Virus record (IMG/VR): IMGVR_UViG_3300031578_000043
Strand: one strand, 5' to 3'
Source: a virus
DNA: 56,686 nucleotides
This document shows positions 584 to 31,015 of the stretch, in pieces (positions within the stretch are counted from its first letter, which is position 1; the number at the start of each line of letters is the position of its first letter). The notes beneath the pieces are model-generated. The model worked only from the letters and a program-made list of their open reading frames with translations, searched no databases and was not told where the DNA came from. The translations under genes and the position numbers were made by a program.

Positions 584-1000
584 ATGGAATATATTCAACT
601 GCTGATTGCATATTTCGACTTCCCAACAGTCGTGTTGTCCTTCATGCTCATCGGCATCGCGTATGCAATGTCTCAGGCCCAAAAGAAAGATGGATTCGAT
701 TGGGGCGACGGATTCAGGGACGCGAACGGAAAGGTGAGTTACACCCATGCGGCTGTTCCGATCGCCCTAGCCCTTTCCTCGGCAGTACTTTTGTACGTCA
801 CCATCGACGGGGTGAAGGGAAGTCATACGGGGCCGGAAATCTCCCAAGTACTTAATGCCCTCCTGTATTGGTATATTGCCTACATGATCGTTTGGGCCGG
901 GACTAAGACGGTGGATAAACTCGTCGAATTGATCCAGACATATTTCACGGTCAAAGGCGGTGGAAGGCCGGAAGAAAAGCAGGGCGAGAAGCATGATTAA
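584..1000 (+). CDS. Putative holin (three hydrophobic segments)
   Basis: 138 aa with three TM-like stretches and a charged C-terminus. Its stop overlaps the endolysin start (ATGATTAA). Confidence 0.5.
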   Translation: MEYIQLLIAYFDFPTVVLSFMLIGIAYAMSQAQKKDGFDWGDGFRDANGKVSYTHAAVPIALALSSAVLLYVTIDGVKGSHTGPEISQVLNALLYWYIAYMIVWAGTKTVDKLVELIQTYFTVKGGGRPEEKQGEKHD

Positions 1001-1454
1001 GGGAAACCGAAAGGCATTTCTGGACATGATCGCATACAGCGAAATAGGCCCCGCGCTGCTCTCCGTTTCGGACAACGGCTATAATGTTCTGGTCGGATCA
1101 ACACCAGAGCATCCCTTGTTATTCGACAACTACAGTCAGCACCCGAGAATACACAATGACGCAGAGGATTCAGACGCCGCAGGCCGATATCAGTTCATGG
1201 GCCGATACTGGCTCACCTACAAGGCGCAGCTTTCGCTTCCTGACTTCGGCCCGGATTCACAGGATGAGTGGGCAATGCAGTTGATCCGCGAATGTCATGC
1301 GCTCGCCGCGATAGACGCAGGCGACTTGCAGACGGCAGTGCATTTGTGCCGAAGCCGATGGGCAAGTTTCCCTGAAGCTGGATACGGTCAGCATGAGCAA
1401 CAGTTTGCGGCATTGCAAGCCGCTTATACAGCAGCGGGCGGTACGCTCGCATAG
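993..1454 (+). CDS. Endolysin, lambda R-like lytic transglycosylase (GH104-type)
   Basis: MIKGNRKAFLDMIAYSEIG...AGRYQFMGRYW...FGPDSQDEWAMQLI...WASFPEAGYGQ is colinear with phage lambda R (NQRKAFLDMLAWSEGT...GAGRYQLLSRWW...WASLPGAGYGQ), including the catalytic Glu in the SE motif. Confidence 0.85.
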   Translation: MIKGNRKAFLDMIAYSEIGPALLSVSDNGYNVLVGSTPEHPLLFDNYSQHPRIHNDAEDSDAAGRYQFMGRYWLTYKAQLSLPDFGPDSQDEWAMQLIRECHALAAIDAGDLQTAVHLCRSRWASFPEAGYGQHEQQFAALQAAYTAAGGTLA

Positions 1455-1462
1455 GAGACAGA

Positions 1463-1651
1463 ATGGCAACGATCCGTGAAGAACTGCAGACCAAACTGAA
1501 TGAAATCACCGCCGCTTACGAGGCAGAAAAGGCCCCGATCGAGGCTGCCTTAAAATCCGGCGAAAGCTGGCTTGAACGCGAGTACGAGTCAGTCGTCTCG
1601 GAATTGGAGTCTCTGATCGCAAAGGTGCGCGGCACGCCGCCCGCGCCATGA
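1463..1651 (+). CDS. Hypothetical small coiled-coil protein
   Basis: 62-aa ORF with AGGAG-like RBS upstream and ATGA coupling to the next ORF. Confidence 0.5.
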   Translation: MATIREELQTKLNEITAAYEAEKAPIEAALKSGESWLEREYESVVSELESLIAKVRGTPPAP

Positions 1652-2013
1652 AAAATCGTCAACGTGGCGTCATCACTCTTTTGATGGCCGCTGCCCTAGC
1701 CAGCGCAGCGACCTATGTCCTTGTTCCCCGGAAATTCGATCCGGGGGAGTACGGCTACTATGTGGATCTGCGGGTAATGGCGCAGCACCTTGGCTGCCCA
1801 TTCGATCCTGCCGTGTACGCCGGAATGACTACCGAAACTGAACGGCTGCAGACCTGGGTCAAGTTCCGCGGTTCCAGCGATGCAAATACCGTCGCCAAGG
1901 CCGCAGGAAGCCTCCTAGACGACGCAAAGCGCGGGGACTGCCCAACGGCGGTCAAGAACCTCGAAGCAGGCTACGACCGCATCCTGACTACGCTGGCGAA
2001 GGGAAAACCATGA
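1648..2013 (+). CDS. Hypothetical protein with N-terminal signal-anchor
   Basis: 121 aa with N-terminal hydrophobic segment VITLLMAAALASAATYVLV. ATGA-coupled on both sides. Confidence 0.5.
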   Translation: MKNRQRGVITLLMAAALASAATYVLVPRKFDPGEYGYYVDLRVMAQHLGCPFDPAVYAGMTTETERLQTWVKFRGSSDANTVAKAAGSLLDDAKRGDCPTAVKNLEAGYDRILTTLAKGKP

Positions 2014-2246
2014 ACATCACCGATCTGACCGATAGCGCAGACCCGTTCATCGCGTACCTCGGCAAGCGAGCTCAAGCGGCAAAAGACGCCCACGACGCCG
2101 GGACCATGAGCGACGGCGACTACGAGGCTCAGATTACCCAACTTACCGACTTGGAGGCGCTTGGCGAGGCTTGCGGGAGCGAGGATACCAAACTGGCGCT
2201 TGCCGAGGCTGTAGGCTACCTGGCGCAGTTCCTGGCGGCAGCGTGA
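2010..2246 (+). CDS. Hypothetical acidic protein
   Basis: 78-aa ORF, ATGA overlap upstream and GTGA overlap downstream. Confidence 0.45.
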   Translation: MNITDLTDSADPFIAYLGKRAQAAKDAHDAGTMSDGDYEAQITQLTDLEALGEACGSEDTKLALAEAVGYLAQFLAAA

Positions 2247-2818
2247 GCCCACTTTCCATCTTCTCGGGGCCGTATGCGTTTCTGGCCCGGATGGGCGTTT
2301 TCTTCCTGACGCTGTTTATTGCCATAGCCTTCGGGTTCTATGAAGGCTGGAAGTGGGAGCGGCCGGCGGTGAAGGTCGCCCAGGACAAGCTGACCGCCTT
2401 TGCCGCCCAGATCAAGACCATCGGCGATGAGTCGGCCAAGACCGCCGCCGCGAAGGATTTAGCCAATCAACAATCGAAGGAGAAAGCTGATGCCGAACAC
2501 ACGAAGGATGTTGCCACTCTTGCTGCTAATTGGGCTGCTGAGTATGACCGGCTGCGCAAGTCAGCCGCAGCTAGTGCCAGTCGCGGTCCCGTGCCCAAAG
2601 TCGCCGTCAATTCCGGCCTGTCTTGCAGCGCCACCGCAAACGCAGCAATTTCTGCCGCAGTTTCAACAAGCATCGCAGGCGCTAGAGCAGCGCTTGACGA
2701 ATGCGAATCGGGTGCTCGACAGTTCCGAGACTCAGTTGCGCAGCAGCTTGAGCAAGCCGACAGGAACACAGAAGCCCTAGTCTGCGGCGTTAAATGGGCG
2801 CATAGTATAGGGCAATGA
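2243..2818 (+). CDS. i-spanin (Rz-like)
   Basis: N-terminal TM (GVFFLTLFIAIAFGFY) followed by a long charged/coiled region. Contains an embedded +1-frame lipoprotein ORF. Start is GTG 2243 (GTGA overlap) or ATG 2291. Confidence 0.7.
   Translation: MSPLSIFSGPYAFLARMGVFFLTLFIAIAFGFYEGWKWERPAVKVAQDKLTAFAAQIKTIGDESAKTAAAKDLANQQSKEKADAEHTKDVATLAANWAAEYDRLRKSAAASASRGPVPKVAVNSGLSCSATANAAISAAVSTSIAGARAALDECESGARQFRDSVAQQLEQADRNTEALVCGVKWAHSIGQ
2490..2780 (+). CDS. o-spanin (Rz1-like), fully embedded in the i-spanin gene
   Basis: MPNTRRMLPLLLLIGLLSMTGC has a lipobox, and the mature part is Pro-rich. It lies entirely within 2243..2818 in another frame, the classic embedded spanin architecture. Confidence 0.75.
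   Translation: MPNTRRMLPLLLLIGLLSMTGCASQPQLVPVAVPCPKSPSIPACLAAPPQTQQFLPQFQQASQALEQRLTNANRVLDSSETQLRSSLSKPTGTQKP
2753..2800 (+). repeat. 48-bp direct repeat, copy 1 (functional 3' end of spanin genes); partner at 3891..3938
   Basis: caagccgacaggaacacagaagcc is identical in both copies, and the remainder differs at a few positions. Confidence 0.9.
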
Positions 2819-3354
2819 AGATTTGCTCAGACTGTAAGCGCCCCCTGCTATTGGAAATGTTTAGCAGGAACGCACAATCACGTGACGGTCGCAAGAATCA
2901 ATGCCGACCGTGCGCCAAAATTGCTTATCAAAGATGGATCGCTATTAACAAAGAAGTTCGTAATGAAAGTGCGTCCAAATGGAGAAAAGCTAATTCAGGA
3001 AAGCAACGGTTATATGACAAAAAGTGGAAAGCAAATAATCCTGACAGCTTAAAAAAACAGAGGGCTAAATGGCAGTCTGAAAACAAGCCCCACTTGGCGG
3101 AAAGAACCGCGCGTTATCGAGCAAAAGTTAGAAACGCATCTCCAGCATGGTCAAATATATTCTTCATCAAGGAAGCCTATAGCCTAGCATCAATTCGGTC
3201 TCTAGCTACCGGCATTGAGTATGAAGTGGATCATATCGTACCGATAGTAAGCGGCTTGGTCTGCGGATTGCATGTAGAACATAACCTGCGCGTCATTGAA
3301 TCGAAGATCAATCAGGCCAAAGGGAACAGACATTGGCCCAATATGCCTCGCTGA
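2815..3354 (+). CDS. HNH homing-endonuclease-like protein
   Basis: N-terminal CxxC...CxxC, repeated KW-basic segments, and C-terminal EVDHIVPI...GLH...HNLRVIESKINQAKGN (HNH motif). Confidence 0.8.
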   Translation: MKICSDCKRPLLLEMFSRNAQSRDGRKNQCRPCAKIAYQRWIAINKEVRNESASKWRKANSGKQRLYDKKWKANNPDSLKKQRAKWQSENKPHLAERTARYRAKVRNASPAWSNIFFIKEAYSLASIRSLATGIEYEVDHIVPIVSGLVCGLHVEHNLRVIESKINQAKGNRHWPNMPR

Positions 3355-3423
3355 CAAAGGCAGCCCTAGACCTGAACGGGGCGAAGGAATGGGCAAGTAA
3401 GACATTGCGCTAAGCAAATGAAA

Positions 3424-3449
3424 AGCCCCCGAGTTGGGGGCTTAGTTTT
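3424..3449. terminator. Bidirectional rho-independent terminator
   Basis: AGCCCCC-gagtt-GGGGGCT hairpin flanked by aaaa upstream and tagtttt downstream, between convergent ORFs. Confidence 0.7.
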
Positions 3450-3470
3450 GTGCAGGCCGGAGCCGCAGGT

Positions 3471-3791
3471 TCAGGTATAAGAACTGTGGATCAGCGCAGT
3501 GCCCACACCGAGCCGCGCACCCCCGGACGCGGCGCTTGAGGGCGCGATCAGCGCGGAGCGGGCATTGCCGCCGGCGAGTTCAGGGCTTTTAACAAAGGTC
3601 ACTCTATCGGCCTGCGCCGTCGAGGGCGTACACAATCGCACGTCCATAGCGGGCATCGCGGGCATCGCGGGCATCGCGCTTTGGCTGACGGCCACGGTCT
3701 GATACTTCATAACCGTCCCCGTATCTGCCATTGCGGAAAGGCCAAACAAAGCGGCGAAGATCAACCCCGCCGCGAGCAGGAGATAACGCAT
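3471..3791 (-). CDS. Small secreted protein (moron) with AMP tripeptide repeat
   Basis: Start at ATG 3791 with AAGGAGG RBS. Signal peptide MRYLLLAAGLIFAALFGLSAMA. The 9-bp unit gcgggcatc is repeated three times and encodes (AMP)x3. Confidence 0.55.
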   Translation of the reverse strand: MRYLLLAAGLIFAALFGLSAMADTGTVMKYQTVAVSQSAMPAMPAMPAMDVRLCTPSTAQADRVTFVKSPELAGGNARSALIAPSSAASGGARLGVGTALIHSSYT

Positions 3792-3865
3792 TAAAACCTC
3801 CTTTCCTATTACCGGCAGACCGTACCGGCGCGGTTTCAAGTAGCTACTCGTTACCGAGCAATTTC

Positions 3866-3893
3866 ATTCTAAGCGATCACCGCTAAATGTCAA
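3866..3893 (-). promoter_or_regulatory. Sigma70-like promoter for the moron gene
   Basis: Minus strand reads TTGACA-N16-TAGAAT. Confidence 0.5.
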
Positions 3894-3956
3894 GCCGACA
3901 GGAACACAGAAGCCTTAGTTTGCGGGGTGAGTTGGGCGGCGCGGACATTGCATTAG
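3891..3956 (+). pseudogene. Orphan remnant of a spanin (Rz/Rz1) 3' end
   Basis: Translates in the Rz frame to QADRNTEALVCGVSWAARTLH*, compared with QADRNTEALVCGVKWAHSIGQ* for the functional copy. In the Rz1 frame it gives KPTGTQKP*, identical to the functional Rz1 end. No upstream ORF body. Confidence 0.7.
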
Positions 3957-3964
3957 AAACAGCG

Positions 3965-4213
3965 TTACTTTTTCGTTTCGTTCGTGTTTGAAATGCTGGC
4001 GAATCGCGGAATCAGAACCGCTTTGAGAATCGACAGCACCATGAATAGTCCGACGCAAGCCCAGAATCCTATGTTTTGATAGACGGGCGGTAGGAAGTAG
4101 AAGTACGTTTGGCCGATCCCGCAAACCGTCCATGTGATCCAAAAAGGGACGGCGAGACTTACGGAAAAGAAAAGGGATAAGAACCATCCTACTACCGGCA
4201 ACGCATTAAGCAT
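3965..4213 (-). CDS. Hypothetical integral membrane protein
   Basis: 82 aa with multiple hydrophobic segments. Last gene of the leftward operon. Confidence 0.5.
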   Translation of the reverse strand: MLNALPVVGWFLSLFFSVSLAVPFWITWTVCGIGQTYFYFLPPVYQNIGFWACVGLFMVLSILKAVLIPRFASISNTNETKK

Positions 4214-4224
4214 TTGACTCTCCT

Positions 4225-4677
4225 TTAGTTAGCAACGCACTGTGAGCGCCCGCGCGCATCGCGGACCCTAGATTCTTCGTTGATGCACGCCTTATGTCTA
4301 GCATGGCCGAAACCATCTAAACGAAGGTTCTCAACCGAGTCGTAGTGTTTGCAAATACTACATTTCCGCCAGTTTGCATTCCCGCATGCATCGAATGCGC
4401 GTGATCGTTGGTGCAGAATACGATGATAGTTCTCATCCTGACAAATCACGAGATCATTCGGATTAACTCGCCCTTGCTGCTCATCTACATGATGAACAAC
4501 TGACTTAACTGGAAGCGATCTACCTAGGGCGCGTTCCGCGATGATAATGTGTTCCAAAACATACCCGGACGAATCGGCCCTAGGGTGTTCTGGAATCAAT
4601 AAGGTGCGGTAGCCATTCTTTATTGACCGACCGCCGTTCCAATTTGGATTGCTCTGCGCTTTCTGTGATCGACTCAT
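4225..4677 (-). CDS. HNH endonuclease (HNH_3-like)
   Basis: GYVLEHIIIAERALGRSLPVKSVVHHVDEQ...NPNDLVICQDENYHRILH. Start at ATG 4677 with AAGGA RBS. Confidence 0.75.
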   Translation of the reverse strand: MSRSQKAQSNPNWNGGRSIKNGYRTLLIPEHPRADSSGYVLEHIIIAERALGRSLPVKSVVHHVDEQQGRVNPNDLVICQDENYHRILHQRSRAFDACGNANWRKCSICKHYDSVENLRLDGFGHARHKACINEESRVRDARGRSQCVAN

Positions 4678-4774
4678 CTTGATGTCCTTACTGACATATG
4701 GAGGGTTTGCCAGCTTTCGGGTGAGTAAGCACCTTCGACTTGCGCGCATGCCTGCGACTGACAAACCCATTCTA

Positions 4775-5038
4775 TCACCTTTCCGTCCCTAGTATCTCCC
4801 TTCCCCTGACCGCTATCCCCTGGTTACCTGTGCGCTCGGCTTCGTCGAACAAAGCGAGCAGGGCGGTGCGCTGGGCGGCGAGGGTGCGTTCGAGTTCTTC
4901 GTGCGATACCAGCATTTTGTCTGCAATTCGGCAGAAATTATCCAGCCATCCATCTTTCGGATATTCGGATATTCGGCTATGGGCAGCCATTACCAGTTCC
5001 GCTTTCAGCGCATCGGTTCTCGGCGTCGGCTCGCTCAT
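4775..5038 (-). CDS. Hypothetical protein
   Basis: 87-aa ORF, ATGA-coupled to the upstream gene. Confidence 0.5.
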   Translation of the reverse strand: MSEPTPRTDALKAELVMAAHSRISEYPKDGWLDNFCRIADKMLVSHEELERTLAAQRTALLALFDEAERTGNQGIAVRGREILGTER

Positions 5039-5460
5039 TTCCCGCTCCCCTCTCGAATAACATCTTTAACGAGTGCTTCTGCGGCTGCATATGCCTCGGC
5101 AATGCCTGTAATTCTGTCGTTGCCTGGATCCACATTTGTCTGGCGGTTATAGTATAGTTTTCGTTCCGTAAGGTCTCTCGCTAGACGCTCTAGTGCGCCG
5201 CGCTGTTCGTCGAGGGCGCGCCGGTAAGCATCGATCATCCTTGCGGCGTTCATCAGCAACGGATTTCCGGGATATTCAGCGTCTGCCTCTTTAAGCTGCC
5301 GAATAATGTCGTCGCATTTTGTCGGTAGCGACAAAGGGAACGGTTCGACCCAATGACCGCCGCCTGATCTATGCGGCGTAACTTGTCGCGGACTATCTTC
5401 ACAGTGACCTACAGCGTGAATCTTGTGACATAGCGGACAAATCCCTCTTGGTGGTTTCAT
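5035..5460 (-). CDS. Hypothetical protein with N-terminal Cys/His cluster
   Basis: CPLCHKIHAVGHC near the N-terminus. ATGA coupling at 5457-5460. Confidence 0.5.
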   Translation of the reverse strand: MKPPRGICPLCHKIHAVGHCEDSPRQVTPHRSGGGHWVEPFPLSLPTKCDDIIRQLKEADAEYPGNPLLMNAARMIDAYRRALDEQRGALERLARDLTERKLYYNRQTNVDPGNDRITGIAEAYAAAEALVKDVIREGSGK

Positions 5461-5654: not shown

Positions 5655-6382
5655 GACTCACTCCCTTCGCCCTTCAGGCGGCTGATTTCGGCGCTGATAG
5701 CTTGCCCTACTTTTGCTAGTTCCTTTCGAGCTGCTCTATGGTATACCGCTGAGTCGTCAGCACCGAACGCGTCCGCTTCTGACTCGCTTATATCGTTTGT
5801 GACCTCAGCGTCCTCTAGCATTTCTTGTGCTAACTCCAGTCCGAGCAATGGTGAAGATGCGCTGTTCACAGCATTAACAAATGTTTCAGCATCTTTTCTC
5901 CACTGTGGAATTGGATCACTTTCCGTCACCGCGCTTACCTCTGCCCCTCCAGCGATTCGCGCAACCAACCTTTTGCCAAGCCAAAGGGCGGCTCCGTGAG
6001 TAGGGTTGTGCGTTAGGGATGCGCGTTCCAGTCCGGGCAGGAGGGGAGAGGCAGGGGCGGCACGACCATCAACCGCTTTGACGTTGCAATGCACGCAGCG
6101 CCCTTCAAACCATTCGTGATTGCAGGTTCGTATAAGCCACGGCTGCTGCCCTGCCGCGGTTCGCTCTGGCGCGAGGGCGGCTTCCAGCTTGGCCTCAAGC
6201 TCTCGGATAGCGGCGGCAGCGTCAGCGAATACGCCTGGGCCGAATATCCGGCCAGCCGCTTCGTCCAGCCGCGCCAGCAGTTCGAGGTGGGCGGCGGCGA
6301 GGTTACGCACCTCCCTCGAAAAAAGAGGCGCGTTTGTGATTTCCTCTGCCACTTTTGCCGCAGCCTTGTAGTCAGCGCTCAT
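5648..6382 (-). CDS. Hypothetical protein
   Basis: 244-aa ORF with a CNHEW...CVHC motif. ATGA-coupled. Confidence 0.55.
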   Translation of the reverse strand: MSADYKAAAKVAEEITNAPLFSREVRNLAAAHLELLARLDEAAGRIFGPGVFADAAAAIRELEAKLEAALAPERTAAGQQPWLIRTCNHEWFEGRCVHCNVKAVDGRAAPASPLLPGLERASLTHNPTHGAALWLGKRLVARIAGGAEVSAVTESDPIPQWRKDAETFVNAVNSASSPLLGLELAQEMLEDAEVTNDISESEADAFGADDSAVYHRAARKELAKVGQAISAEISRLKGEGSESC

Positions 6383-6798
6383 CGTCCTTTCTCCTTATCT
6401 GCGTTCGGTCTGGCGGCGAGCATGGCGCGGTATATGCGAACCGAGCGACGCACACCATCAATAGAATATGCAGTCTCGTGATTTTCGTTTGCTTCAATCA
6501 TTGCCGCCAACATTTCCTCTGTTGGCTCCTCCGGCACGCTCACGCCGGGAGGGGCGGTGTAGAGTTTTGTCCCGTTTCTAAGGGGCGCGTAAAGGGTGGG
6601 CCTGCCCATCCACACTTCTCCAACCACCTCGCCCCGTTCCTTCTCCCACTCTGCGTGCAGGCGGCGGGAGAACTCGGCCAGCACCACAGGATCATTAAAG
6701 TCAATTCGCGCTACGTTCGGCAAACCTGAAAGCACCCCCTTAAAATATGCTTCTGTTTCGCCCCAAATCCTCAGCGCCACTTCATCCCACTTATCCAT
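6379..6798 (-). CDS. Hypothetical protein
   Basis: 139-aa ORF adjoining the exonuclease gene stop. Confidence 0.55.
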   Translation of the reverse strand: MDKWDEVALRIWGETEAYFKGVLSGLPNVARIDFNDPVVLAEFSRRLHAEWEKERGEVVGEVWMGRPTLYAPLRNGTKLYTAPPGVSVPEEPTEEMLAAMIEANENHETAYSIDGVRRSVRIYRAMLAARPNADKEKGR

Positions 6799-8666
6799 TA
6801 CGCCTCCTTCGCCTTGCCGAGATAGGCGTCTATCGCCCGCGCAATCCCATCGTGCGGCTTTGATCTTTCAATCCTAGCCCGCAGCGTGGTTATCATTTCC
6901 TCGGTCAGCATGGCTTCGTGGGCTTTGCGTTCCTCGGCTTCCCTGATAGCCTGCTGGCGCACCCGTTCGGTCTCCTGCCGCGCCTGTTCGGCTAGGCGCT
7001 TTTGCCGTTCTTCCTCATCGGCCTTAGCCTTGGCCGCGCGCTCGATTCCCTCCTGCTGGATTCGGGCGGCTTCCAGGCGATCCGATTCCGCCTTCAAACG
7101 CGCTTCCTCAGCCGCGATTCTATCCCTTGCAGCAGCTTCCTCGGCTTGGATGGCCTCACGCCTTGCTTTGTCCTCGGCATCGCGTTTGGCGCGTTCCTGT
7201 GCTTGCCTTGAGGCTTCCGCGTCGGCTACCTTGGCCTTTGCTTCATCTTCGGCCAGTTGACGGCTGCGAGATTCCTGATCGACCCGGACCCGCTCGGCTC
7301 TTTCCGCTTCGGCTTTAGCTTTGGCCGCTTCCTCGGCCCTGATCTTCTCGCGTTCGGTTTCTAGGCGTTCCTTTTCAGCGTCCTGGTGAGCCCTGACCCG
7401 GTTTATCACGATGGCGTCGAAAGCCTCGGAGTCCATGTGCAGAAGGGCGTCCATGTCGCGGAACAGGAAAGTGTAGTCCTTGGCGAGCGAGTTGGCCGAC
7501 TTGAGGTTGATTTCCGCCTTGTCCGCAATTGAATTGGCCTCGATCTTGCCCGATGCCAACATGGTATCAACCGCGTCCCGGAGCGAACTAACCGTTTTTT
7601 TCCCTTTTATCGCGCCCGCAAAATCAGGCATTGAGACGGCGCCGAGCATGTAGGAGCGTCCGATGCGTTTATTCAGCATGGCAAGGTGCGCGCCCAGCGC
7701 GTCCTTCCCGCCTTGCACAATTTCGACCCTGATCGACTCTTTGCGCGCCTTCACCAGCGCAGTCAGAGCAAGCCGAGTTTGCCGAGCCTGACCCGCGTAA
7801 AGGGCGACTGTGCGGCTCATTTCGTCCACGGTGGCGACTTGGGCCAGGGCGTTCGCTTTGGCCGCTTCCAGGGCTTTCTCTGCGGTCTCCAAGGTCTTGA
7901 TTGCCGCTTCGCTGTCGGCAAATTCTTGGTCGGTGGACGGCTTCTCAGGTAGTCCCGCAATGAAGTCCGTCAACTTCTCCCCGAACAGCTTGAGGTTGTC
8001 GTGAAGGGTGATTGACCCGGCGACTTGGATGGACAGGGCAGGTAGGGCAATCGTTGCTGCCGCTTTCGCTGCGGGAATCACTTCGACCGGCTTGTAGTCA
8101 AGGAGGTCAGCTTCAAATTGCGCCCAACCTTCGCGGATTCGTTTCGCCCAAGCGGGATCTGGTTTGACCATCATGTGAACGCAGTTCTCGGGCGTTCCGT
8201 CTGAGACCATGAACAGCACTTGCTCGGCGCCCGTCACCATCATTACCTGCTGGCACTGTGGCTGATGTTCTTCTGGCAGGATTCCTTTTGCAACGGACGC
8301 CGCTAGGTCTTTGGCCCATTGCTTATGTTCCCACGCGGTTGTTTCGTCCATCGTGAGTCCGTCGCAGGATGCGGACAGTTTGCCCAACGAGCAAGTTGTC
8401 GGATAGAGATCCTCGCCAAGAATTTTTTCAGCGATCGGACGCGCCTGTGCTTCGAGTTCATGTCCGCGGGCAAAGATTTTCTCCTGCATGAAATCGCTGT
8501 ATTCCTTTGCGATGCCGGTTGCTTTTGCCCTGAGCAATTCGCTCCTTGTCATCTTGGAAGAAATTCCCAACATAGGGGCCGCTTCGCTTGCGCCGTCATG
8601 GTCAAGCCTGAACTGATCCCAAAGCGGAGTTCCTTGAATCAGGTCGTGTACGATGCGTTCGCTCAT
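6798..8666 (-). CDS. YqaJ/lambda-Exo-like recombination exonuclease fused to a long helical and E/A/R/K-rich C-terminal extension
   Basis: The N-terminal ~190 aa (LIQGTPLWDQFR...GHELEAQARP...SCDGL...WEHKQW) fit the YqaJ PD-(D/E)xK exonuclease pattern. These are followed by ~240 helical aa and ~190 aa of charged repeats. ATGA-coupled to the annealase gene. Confidence 0.7.
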   Translation of the reverse strand: MSERIVHDLIQGTPLWDQFRLDHDGASEAAPMLGISSKMTRSELLRAKATGIAKEYSDFMQEKIFARGHELEAQARPIAEKILGEDLYPTTCSLGKLSASCDGLTMDETTAWEHKQWAKDLAASVAKGILPEEHQPQCQQVMMVTGAEQVLFMVSDGTPENCVHMMVKPDPAWAKRIREGWAQFEADLLDYKPVEVIPAAKAAATIALPALSIQVAGSITLHDNLKLFGEKLTDFIAGLPEKPSTDQEFADSEAAIKTLETAEKALEAAKANALAQVATVDEMSRTVALYAGQARQTRLALTALVKARKESIRVEIVQGGKDALGAHLAMLNKRIGRSYMLGAVSMPDFAGAIKGKKTVSSLRDAVDTMLASGKIEANSIADKAEINLKSANSLAKDYTFLFRDMDALLHMDSEAFDAIVINRVRAHQDAEKERLETEREKIRAEEAAKAKAEAERAERVRVDQESRSRQLAEDEAKAKVADAEASRQAQERAKRDAEDKARREAIQAEEAAARDRIAAEEARLKAESDRLEAARIQQEGIERAAKAKADEEERQKRLAEQARQETERVRQQAIREAEERKAHEAMLTEEMITTLRARIERSKPHDGIARAIDAYLGKAKEA

Positions 8667-9658
8667 TCCCATTCTCCCCCGAATGATTCGTAAAGTTTCT
8701 CAAGGTCGGCGCTTTGCTGGTCGTCGGCAATGCGCTCGATCAGCGTAGCGGCTGCGACCAGCGCTTTCTTGTCCTTCGCTTTGTCGGCCGCTTCCAACTG
8801 TTCGGCAATCTCGGCAAAGGTGATGTTCGCTGCCTCGATTTGCTTTTTCTGCTCGTCACTCAATACCGCTTTGGACGAAACCATTGTGATGATCTGCGCA
8901 GCGGTTTTCTTCCCCGACTTGATGAGCTTCGTCCAAGCGGGGAGATTCTTGGTGAAGGCTTCGGCGGCGTAGGCAGGGAGCCCTTCGGGTTTTTGTTCTT
9001 CCCGTTTTTCCTCGTTTCTGTTTCCATCTTCGTCCGTGATGGGGACGTTGAATACCATGCAGGTCAGAACACGTCGCCCGTAGGTCGTCATGGAAACTAC
9101 GCCTTGAATCGGCGTTTTGTTCGCATTGCCTTTCACTCCGACTTCATCCGAAGGCAGGTCGATGTGATGCTGCCTCGAATGCCCTCCTGAGTGAGAAACA
9201 ATTGCGATGGTTCTGAACCACCCTTGAGGCGGCGGGCTGATCGGCTTGCCGTCTGCACCCAAAACAGGTCTGTCTGAATCGAAGGAAATGGAGAGACCTT
9301 CTGCGGTGTAGAAAGGCACGATCACCCGCGAAATAGCCGCGAGGTCCGCATAGACGCTCCGGGTGTGCTCGTTGCGTTGATTGGCGACGATAGGGACGAT
9401 CTTCGATTGAGCTCGCGCCATCGCGTCGTTAAACGCGGACTCGGCCTCCTTCGCCATCAATTGCTGGTGCATGGCGAAAAGACGCTCGATCTTTTCAATG
9501 TCCATGTCCGGGTTCGATGCGACACGCTCGATTGCGATAAGCAGGGAGCCAGCGTTGCCTTGTGAGCGAACAGCAGGAAGCGCCCGCTCGTCGTTTCGGG
9601 TGAAACTTCCCTGCGGCATTTCGATAACGCGGCCTTCGTCTTTTGCTGCTGTTTCCAT
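8663..9658 (-). CDS. ERF-family single-strand annealing protein
   Basis: AFNDAMARAQSKI...SVYADLAAISRVIVPFYTAEGLSISF...IVSHSGGH...MTTYGRRVLTCMVFNV fits the ERF pattern. GGAGGA RBS before ATG 9658. Paired with the exonuclease. Confidence 0.65.
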   Translation of the reverse strand: METAAKDEGRVIEMPQGSFTRNDERALPAVRSQGNAGSLLIAIERVASNPDMDIEKIERLFAMHQQLMAKEAESAFNDAMARAQSKIVPIVANQRNEHTRSVYADLAAISRVIVPFYTAEGLSISFDSDRPVLGADGKPISPPPQGWFRTIAIVSHSGGHSRQHHIDLPSDEVGVKGNANKTPIQGVVSMTTYGRRVLTCMVFNVPITDEDGNRNEEKREEQKPEGLPAYAAEAFTKNLPAWTKLIKSGKKTAAQIITMVSSKAVLSDEQKKQIEAANITFAEIAEQLEAADKAKDKKALVAAATLIERIADDQQSADLEKLYESFGGEWE

Positions 9659-9668
9659 ACTTCCTCCG

Positions 9669-9752
9669 TTAAGGTGACAAATTCCAATAGCAAGCGGCAA
9701 TGGACAACGCTAAAGCCGCAAGCCAAAAAAGGACGATGAAGCGATGGCTCAT
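9669..9752 (-). CDS. Possible 27-aa hydrophobic peptide
   Basis: MSHRFIVLFWLAALALSIAACYWNLSP, ATGA-coupled to the upstream ORF. Confidence 0.3.
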   Translation of the reverse strand: MSHRFIVLFWLAALALSIAACYWNLSP

Positions 9753-30731: not shown

Positions 30732-31015
30732 CGTATAGAGGCGTTTCCGGCAACAACAAAAAGCTCGGCATCAAGCCCACTGACGAAGATCGGGCGTTCG
30801 TCCATACTCTTGCTCGAATGAAACTCGGCGTCAGAAGAATCGCGGTGCTGATGGGCGAGCGGTATGGGTTGGGAAAGTCGATGAGCCGCATGGCGCTCTA
30901 TTACCATCATCGGGAAGACCTGAAAGTATCCGAGAACGAAAAGAAACGGTTTAAACTTCGTTTGGAGAAGGGCGTCATCGAAGCGATCGAGAGAGTGATT
31001 AAATATGGCTCGTAA
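30728..31015 (+). CDS. Putative small terminase subunit / HTH protein
   Basis: 95 aa, HTH-like VRRIAVLMGERYGLGKSMSRMALY. Overlaps the terL start. Confidence 0.4.
   Translation: MTYRGVSGNNKKLGIKPTDEDRAFVHTLARMKLGVRRIAVLMGERYGLGKSMSRMALYYHHREDLKVSENEKKRFKLRLEKGVIEAIERVIKYGS

Follow-up and report, generated by a model that had tools for sequence, protein, structure and literature searches.

The window analysed here, IMG/VR virus record IMGVR_UViG_3300031578_000043, is a stretch of 56,686 nucleotides (nt) from an uncultured phage, a circular assembly of ~56.6 kb in which the terminal 63 nt repeat the initial 63. At the convergent junction where its rightward lysis operon meets the end of its leftward recombination operon, the spanin genes Rz and Rz1 are followed by an HNH-type endonuclease gene and by two displaced spanin gene ends, one of which directly adjoins the HNH gene. 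We consider it probable that this arrangement arose by two nested events, each of which would have supplied a functional 3′ module of Rz/Rz1 and pushed the tail already present out of place, with a putative part for homing. An initial annotation of the same DNA had described a single cassette, comprising the HNH gene and a moron-like gene, that entered once and left a repeated spanin end as its footprint. The features on which the argument turns are as follows.

2243–2818, plus strand: Rz (i-spanin), GTG start, 191 amino acids (aa) as in relatives, with an N-terminal transmembrane segment, located after the endolysin gene
2490–2780, plus strand, +1 frame, embedded in Rz: Rz1 (o-spanin), lipobox-like LSMTGC; matches phrog_456 (1.4e-4) and phrog_3198
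2465–2800, plus strand: recombinant tract with another allele of the long-type Rz/Rz1, in linkage with the HNH gene
2753–2800, plus strand: repeat copy 1, the working Rz/Rz1 end
2801–3354, plus strand: HNH-specific DNA, 14 nt and the open reading frame (ORF) 2815–3354 (179 aa)
3355–3412, plus strand: remnant 1, a displaced short-type Rz tail, KAALDLNGAKEWASKTLR and a stop, directly after the HNH stop
3891–3956, plus strand: remnant 2, a displaced long-type Rz and Rz1 tail, the orphan copy of the initial annotation

Two displaced spanin tails

Remnant 1, which the initial annotation overlooked, adjoins the HNH gene and is of another, 'short' Rz type of 169–170 aa (P0010, P0011, P0014 and P0017). 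In the other frame it retains the last codons of a short-type Rz1 (QRQP and a stop). The contig L015, which lacks the HNH gene, carries the same sequence as the intact end of its Rz (GLADEGAKAALDLNSAKEWASKTLH, then a stop), and the displaced piece therefore matches an HNH-less relative. A second contig, L004, has the HNH gene followed by KAALDLNSAKTWAKSLQ and a stop, which is exactly the tail of P0011; past the HNH gene it is 96% identical over 158 bp to L011, from the short Rz tail into the downstream DNA. On its other side, the HNH gene is preceded by a replacement C-terminus that is in phase with the target, with Rz running through 2800 into HSIGQ and a stop, and the native tail comes after. 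The earlier proposal that the orphan at 3891–3956 is the co-conversion footprint of the cassette had to be given up, as the remnant that adjoins the HNH gene is instead the one at 3355–3412 and of a different Rz type.

Remnant 2 is of the long type. A repeat search recovered the direct repeat that the initial annotation had reported, with 2753–2800 recurring at 3891–3938 (48 nt, 88% identity); the initial 24 nt match exactly, far above chance expectation in 2.5 kb, and the orphan runs to its own stop (TAG, 3954–3956). The account of both reading frames also held. Within the first 13 codons of the Rz frame, all four differences (cta/tta, gtc/gtt, ggc/ggg and gtt/gtg) are synonymous, and the Rz1 frame gives KPTGTQKP and a stop in each copy, with ccc/cct as the sole difference. 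In the Rz frame, copy 1 from 2753 onward reads QADRNTEALVCGVKWAHSIGQ and a stop, and the orphan reads QADRNTEALVCGVSWAARTLH and a stop; their ends compare as ADRNTEALVCGVKWAHSIGQ and ADRNTEALVCGVSWAARTLH. It is the orphan that spells the consensus C-terminus of the family (aligned as EQADRNTEALVCGVxWAxKTLH), and the tail of the working Rz, KWAHSIGQ, is the odd one, unique within a family of 19 metagenome homologues that are mostly 188–192 aa long. As the initial annotation had anticipated, there are relatives with an Rz that ends in VSWAARTLH (P0007 ends exactly so) and cassette-free relatives with a contiguous junction, in which Rz is followed by the convergent genes (L001, L002, L003, L021 and L023–L027); L001 is 95% identical to remnant 2 up to 3955. 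On the strength of these matches to cassette-free tails, we take the orphan to be a displaced native-type end. The idea of a diverged, functional spanin allele thus survives in so far as the orphan is a displaced and once-functional Rz/Rz1 end; the entry of a single cassette, to which that idea was tied, does not.

Two other origins of the orphan have to be weighed here. A local tandem duplication of the Rz end, with divergence and later insertions between the copies, would yield a direct repeat in the same orientation, as observed. However, the orphan resembles alleles of other phages (95% identity to L001, complete identity in L015 and L020) more than it does copy 1 (88%). Copy 1 has changes that are exclusive to contigs with the HNH gene, remnant 1 comes from another Rz type altogether, and no relative turned up in which two identical tails adjoin each other, all of which leaves a duplication with next to no probability. 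The orphan might alternatively have been retained for a new function, as part of a −35 box, as upstream context of a promoter or as a small ORF. It supplies the TTG of a candidate −35 hexamer and is 100% conserved among the window, L015 and L020, yet the flanking 300 bp are conserved equally, so that its conservation reflects recency. Remnant 2 is likewise identical in L016, and L020 retains 27 nt more of the tail with the −35 hexamer unchanged. We found no support for the 34-aa ORF (3887–3991) that overlaps the orphan, and we regard retention for function as improbable.

The working spanin end is recombinant

Rz1 lies wholly inside 2243–2818, and both of its PHROG families are labelled 'Rz-like spanin'. 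Rz itself gave no profile match; a transmembrane segment and an upstream endolysin gene are both present, as in two-component embedded spanins, and its GTG start overlaps the stop of the preceding gene (GTGA). Comparison with L002 located a sharp change within this gene pair. The two sequences have no differences over 271–2464 (2194 bp) and 59 over 2465–2800, where they are ~17% divergent. L005 shows the mirror pattern, with 32 differences from the window that all fall in 2243–2411 and none in 2412–4257. The window therefore combines an L002-like left arm with an L005-like right arm, which places a crossover in 2412–2464, just before the Rz1 start, and bears out the initial annotation in seeing recombination at the working Rz end, the 3′ part of which is a recombinant patch.

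In all relatives with a short-type Rz, DNA homology to the window stops at 2493, 4 nt into Rz1, indicating that the exchangeable unit is Rz1 together with the matching periplasmic part of Rz. From these alignments, the N-terminal third of Rz is a conserved recombination arm, and Rz1 with the C-terminal part of Rz is a swappable cassette. Long-type alleles without the HNH gene (L001/L022, L002, L003, L021, L023, L024, L025 and L027) keep homology to the window up to 2800; past this point, each has 18 nt to its own stop and then the convergent genes directly. All contigs with the HNH gene share synonymous variants beside the insertion, at 2777, 2782, 2788 and 2791. The changes at 2782 and 2791 are also found in some HNH-less alleles, and those at 2777 and 2788 occur only in contigs with the HNH gene, being absent from every HNH-less allele and from the orphan copy.

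Relatives preserve intermediate states

Forms with and without the HNH gene came from the same samples (3300031673, ERZ27256808 and ERZ27256810). They represent the following states.

HNH-less short-Rz state, L015 (3300031673) and L016 (ERZ27256810): intact short Rz ending in AKAALDLNSAKEWASKTLH and a stop
tRNA-slot state, L020 (ERZ27256810): intact short Rz, a promoter with CTTGACATTT and a longer remnant 2
HNH gene in another background, L004 (ERZ27256810): Hydrolase_2 endolysin, without the accessory gene and without remnant 2
Window state, L005–L008, L017 and L019: arranged as in the window; breakpoints in remnant 1 (3378/3380) and beyond

Past their short Rz, L015 and L016 continue with a hairpin, the accessory gene, the promoter, remnant 2 and an 82-aa gene, and from 3355 they are 96–97% identical to the window (L015 to 4257 and L016 to 4048). 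By this alignment, the two contigs are the exact empty site of the HNH gene, with remnant 2 already present. L020 is 100% identical to the window over 3891–4257; at 471–1078 it has six transfer RNA (tRNA) genes on the minus strand (Pro, Leu, Tyr, Leu, Thr and Ser) that replace the accessory gene, and the window has no tRNA gene. As the HNH-less L015, L016 and L020 all carry remnant 2, this remnant predates the HNH gene and belongs with the block of short Rz and promoter-driven slot. L004 provides the HNH gene on its own. There are no differences from the window over the 664 bp of 2714–3377, which span the last 105 nt of Rz, the HNH gene and the first 23 nt of remnant 1; the DNA upstream is ~10% divergent, and the DNA downstream is unrelated. 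Recombination breakpoints accordingly fall in 2412–2464, at 2713/2714 and, inside remnant 1, at 3377/3378.

These states bear directly on the single entry of one cassette of HNH gene, terminator and accessory gene, with the 48-bp repeat as its footprint. The repeat brackets the whole 1.1-kb block and the recombinant Rz tract abuts it, as such an entry would predict. Against it, L015 and L016 have the orphan, the accessory gene and its promoter without the HNH gene, L004 has the HNH gene without the accessory gene or the orphan, and a separate remnant lies between the HNH gene and the accessory gene. We therefore abandon the one-event reading of the initial annotation as very improbable.

The HNH gene

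The ATG of the HNH gene overlaps the Rz stop (ATGA), and the HNH-specific DNA is essentially the ORF alone, with a GC content of 42–45% compared with 58–62% in the flanks. The protein matches phrog_1035 ('endonuclease VII', 6e-18), with sub-threshold Pfam matches to HNH and HNH_4 and a match to the Cas9 HNH domain at E 0.024; a sequence search of the PDB with the single HNH protein returned noise only. An AlphaFold2 (AF2) model has a predicted local distance difference test score (pLDDT) of 83.7, but of only 41–54 over the catalytic loop. Its top Foldseek matches are PacI and Hpy99I, at an insignificant E>1. Support for an HNH fold from these comparisons is moderate. We count at least 148 related proteins and at least 577 loci in IMG/VR for this family, in which H140, N157 and N166 are invariant and D139 nearly so. 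Shared features are a CxxC..CxxC zinc ribbon, repeated W-x3-N helices and the end ..VDHIVP..GLHVEHNL..N..KGNRHWPDMP.

Residues 1–105 (2815–3130) consist of the ribbon and then four to five W-x3-N helices, at an AF2 pLDDT of ~98; in the model, this non-catalytic part may be a modular array for reading DNA. The IMG/VR records 3300010384_000023 (L079/L111) and 3300010226_000008 (L080/L110) each hold two copies of the family, ~11 kb apart.

Presence of the gene is polymorphic at one site among near-identical genomes (absent from L015 and L016; present in L005–L008, L017 and L019). A packaging-type HNH protein was considered and rejected, as near-identical genomes do without the gene and the terminase, at 31005, is distant from it. 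At the right end, the conserved protein stops at MP, and the extra R and stop come from ctcgctgac, which is also present in the target, 8 nt upstream of remnant 1. Given that this sequence occurs in both, the right junction may lie near 3346, with 8 nt lost. The 9-mer CTCGCTGAC, common to the HNH end and the target, was considered as the junction microhomology, but eight target bases are missing.

The same layout at other phage genes

Across 92 distinct IMG/VR loci of the HNH family, we took the same-strand gene that runs up to the start of the HNH gene and compared its last 45–50 aa with a translation of the DNA that follows the HNH gene. Forward-strand matches at E≤1e-3 were obtained at 4 of the 92, and neither the reverse strand nor shuffled tails gave any at this threshold. 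At L052, a 134-aa gene ends in TSRVYLPTQVASGNTFSLCGWYEI and a stop with an ATGA overlap, and the HNH gene is followed at once by TSRAYLPTQVASGNAFLLCGSYEI and a stop (40 aa, E 5e-20). Seven HNH-less relatives of L052 have a contiguous tail ending in CGSYEI or CGSFEI; by residue count on the tails, the remnant is identical to these at 35/40 positions and the working tail at 29/40. At L078, an 814-aa gene ends in PGEALPDRAPNMERAVGQ and a stop with the ATGA layout seen at Rz; the HNH protein reaches WWPDMP and is followed in frame by GEIVPDRAPDLSRAVGG and a stop (18 aa, E 4e-8), and 24 HNH-less relatives share the end motif with nothing inserted. At L070, a 10-aa remnant comes right after the HNH stop, which we regard as weak. 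On these comparisons, the order of replacement tail, HNH gene and displaced native tail recurs at three unrelated phage genes, strongly at L052 and L078 and weakly at L070. A match at L141 (E 9e-5, 29% identity) starts ~95 nt past the HNH gene and was set aside as noise, as were weaker protein-level matches (L049/L033, L118 and below).

At the DNA level, the flanks of 76 other HNH loci had no repeats beyond chance 13-mers, implying that the replacement ends are old or foreign rather than fresh target duplications. The recurrence is relevant to passive mosaicism, in which illegitimate recombination between co-infecting phages, perhaps aided by the Erf/RecE-like system, made the junctions and the HNH gene is mere cargo, inactive or irrelevant. 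No nuclease adjoins the older event, the region has three variable slots with many alleles, and short conserved islands at gene junctions could seed such exchange. Yet at four unrelated genes the replaced and displaced tails border the HNH ORF precisely, and neither the control strand nor shuffled tails gave a comparable signal; moreover, two backgrounds with ~10% divergence carry the 664-bp HNH module without a single difference. We think passive mosaicism unlikely, although of appreciable probability.

Accessory gene and surrounding variable zone

Between the HNH gene and the right flank lie further variable elements, beyond which the two operons continue.

3423–3443: hairpin with an intrinsic-terminator score on both strands
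3471–3791, minus strand: accessory (moron-like) gene, 106 aa, ATG at 3791, signal-peptide-like N-terminus, SAMPAMPAMPAM
3866–3893, minus strand: promoter-like TTGACA-16-TAGAAT, 11/12 consensus matches
3965–4213, minus strand: gene for an 82-aa membrane protein, which bounds the whole variable zone on the right and is constant
4258–4793, minus strand: second variable slot with a second HNH gene (HNH2, ORF 4225–4770), matching PHROG HNH families
960–1454, plus strand: endolysin, phrog_90 (1e-44), upstream of Rz with three small ORFs between
6798–8672, leftward operon: RecE-like exonuclease
8663–9700, leftward operon: Erf-like annealase

The inventory of the initial annotation between the repeat copies, an HNH-type ORF, a terminator-like hairpin for both strands and a signal-peptide-like ORF on the minus strand with TTGACA-16-TAGAAT, was recovered in full. 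The hairpin is also found directly 3′ of the intact short Rz in L015. For the accessory protein, which the initial annotation put forward as a candidate lysogenic-conversion or exclusion factor, searches gave just three close relatives and no match to a family. As for its moron-like character, the candidate promoter and terminator were recognized by consensus matches, and the module is replaced by tRNA genes in L020. The candidate −35 hexamer spans the 3890/3891 junction and takes its TTG from the orphan; the 10-mer CTTGACATTT is present at the L020 junction too, ahead of the tRNA cluster. The module at 3416–3872 is 80–82% identical in L012–L014. A 9-nt AMP-coding unit (3645–3679) is present in three copies in the window and in one copy in L015, L016 and L012, a change that is consistent with slippage within the accessory gene. 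A 70%-identical accessory relative lies directly 3′ of a GIY-YIG gene in L012 (2671–3859) and L013 (179–1366). Judging from this placement, the module travels in more than one context, again beside a homing-type nuclease. In L012, helicase and DNA methylase genes precede the GIY-YIG gene; L014 starts at the accessory-type gene itself.

The exact 82-aa protein occurs on five further contigs with differing left neighbours. The second slot holds an HNH gene in the window, L017 and L001 (78%), an 87-aa ORF in L005 and L019 that is related to a 96-aa ORF of L004, and other DNA in L015. It is bounded by a GC-rich, hairpin-like sequence (near 4240–4257) and a conserved stretch from ~4794, and the shared flank contributes the final 11 codons of HNH2. 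Islands of ~30 nt at gene junctions of the leftward operon (4855–4886, 5020–5048, 5658–5701 and 6140–6182) are 93–100% identical to stretches of L001, L002, L023, L024 and L031 that are otherwise unrelated; these may be boundary sequences that seed module exchange. Taken as a whole, the compared contigs indicate that the junction of the lysis and recombination operons is a plasticity zone. In other data, blastn of 900–4800 of the window against 50,697 phage records gave no match, scans for Rz in viral contigs and in genome contigs found no homologue, and none of Rz, the accessory protein, the 82-aa protein and the two HNH proteins obtained a usable match from Pfam or NCBIfam.

Discussion

Sequence comparison establishes the anatomy of the region, the order of events, the empty sites, the breakpoints and the recurrence at other genes; a mechanism can be proposed on this basis. 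On its left side, each incoming block would have recombined with the conserved 5′ region of Rz; on its right side, the join, non-homologous or based on microhomology, would have fallen within the 3′ end of the resident Rz, pushing the resident tail downstream as an untranslated remnant. As every block came with a complete, matched C-terminal part of Rz and Rz1 of its own, lysis would have stayed intact. In the older event, a short-type Rz/Rz1 module with a promoter-driven slot (holding the accessory gene in the window and tRNA genes in L020) would have displaced a long-type tail, which became remnant 2. In the younger event, a long-type 3′ module (ending in KWAHSIGQ) with the ATGA-coupled, low-GC HNH gene would have displaced the short tail, which became remnant 1.

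We judge it slightly more probable than not that the HNH protein works as a homing endonuclease, with HNH-less Rz alleles as its cleavage targets. Repair of the break from a co-infecting genome that carries the HNH gene would copy this gene and the linked Rz/Rz1 module. First entry into a new allele type would proceed by one-sided, microhomology-joined repair of the kind known from T4 introns, and the displaced native tail would then act as the right homology arm. This role of the displaced tail would account for the remnant taking on the allele of the recipient, as seen between the window and L004, L007 and L017. The diverged replacement tail would make the HNH-carrying allele uncuttable.

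Several observations count against this explanation. The older event has no adjoining endonuclease, which means that illegitimate recombination and selection for working spanins can leave remnants without homing. The genome keeps a consensus long-type tail in remnant 2, which as an HNH target would mean self-cutting; any target is more likely to lie in the short-type region, which HNH-carrying genomes lack. The assignment of the nuclease comes from motifs and sub-threshold profile matches, with Foldseek at E>1, and the right HNH junction is no clean microhomology join, eight target nt being missing. A displaced tail was detectable at only 3/92 other loci. Finally, the ancestral state, a long-type Rz directly before the 82-aa gene, did not turn up among the relatives, in which the L021 contig ends too soon.

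For the family at large, we hold it to be a tentative proposition, a little short of even, that these HNH genes are widespread phage homing elements that invade gene 3′ ends with a diverged replacement end and use the native end as right arm. If so, introns and inteins would be joined by a third means of entering coding DNA, one that works even on a dual-coding spanin segment, and the window phage would hold a stacked record of successive invasions. The region would offer a natural worked example of a selfish nuclease gene inside an essential phage coding region without an intron or intein, with empty sites and most intermediate states sampled together. Such elements would also drive the exchange of functional spanin types, as what is linked to the nuclease gene here is a complete interaction module of matched Rz and Rz1, and stacked remnants could be used as a relative clock of module acquisition. 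Annotation may be misled by orphaned gene ends, by nuclease ORFs extending into codons of the target and by promoters that span junctions. DNA of the L015 type and of the window type provides precise substrates for target tests of a very common, uncharacterized phage HNH family.

In the searchable literature, we found no phage description of replacement-end cassettes. A homing-type nuclease at a spanin gene is described for T5-like phages, in which a GIY-YIG gene is located at the i-spanin C-terminus (2018, PMC6139136). Both cases have the nuclease at the i-spanin 3′ end and i-spanins that differ only at the extreme C-terminus. The T5-like insertion separates overlapped i- and o-spanin genes, with no displaced tail reported, whereas the spanins here stay embedded. 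Morons, reportedly a feature of lambdoid and HK97-like phages, resemble the accessory gene in having promoter-like and terminator-like sites, a differing GC content and variable presence among relatives. Unlike a moron, the accessory gene would have arrived joined to a spanin module and not as a clean insertion.

The free-standing homing endonucleases SegF, SegG and MobE of T-even phages are associated with intronless homing, marker exclusion and co-conversion (PMC2988022, PMC2790892 and PMC10448857). They share with our case an optional nuclease gene between or at gene ends, polymorphism in close relatives and co-converted flanking tracts. In the T4 examples, the nuclease gene lies between intact genes and there is no displaced end, whereas here a whole gene end is replaced and the old end persists. 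Experiments on T4 introns demonstrated one-sided homing in which junctions form at microhomology (Parker et al. 1999, as summarized in PMC2988022). One homologous arm and one microhomology junction, as that summary gives them, are also what we propose for each remnant. The T4 work, again as summarized, used an engineered intron system, whereas the products here are natural and would have been selected to keep the gene whole.

The closest described system is, by analogy of layout, that of the endonuclease 'mORF' gene hybrids of fungal mitochondria, known from atp6 of Allomyces macrogynus (Paquin et al. 1994) and from atp6, atp9, cox2 and nad3 of Glomus (PMC3630166). In these hybrids, an endonuclease ORF near the 3′ end of a gene is preceded by an in-phase foreign C-terminus and followed by the displaced native C-terminus, and relatives without the element resemble the native piece more closely than the inserted one (PMC3630166). 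The same pattern is found in the window, with remnant 1 compared with L015, and at L052. The differences are that the system here is a phage with an HNH-type nuclease, the cleavage by which is putative; that the dual-coding target, Rz with the embedded Rz1, leaves two frames to keep; and that there are two nested displaced tails and a replacement of a different protein length class. The dual-coding target, the replacement of different length class and the two stacked remnants with most of their intermediates are what distinguish the present case.

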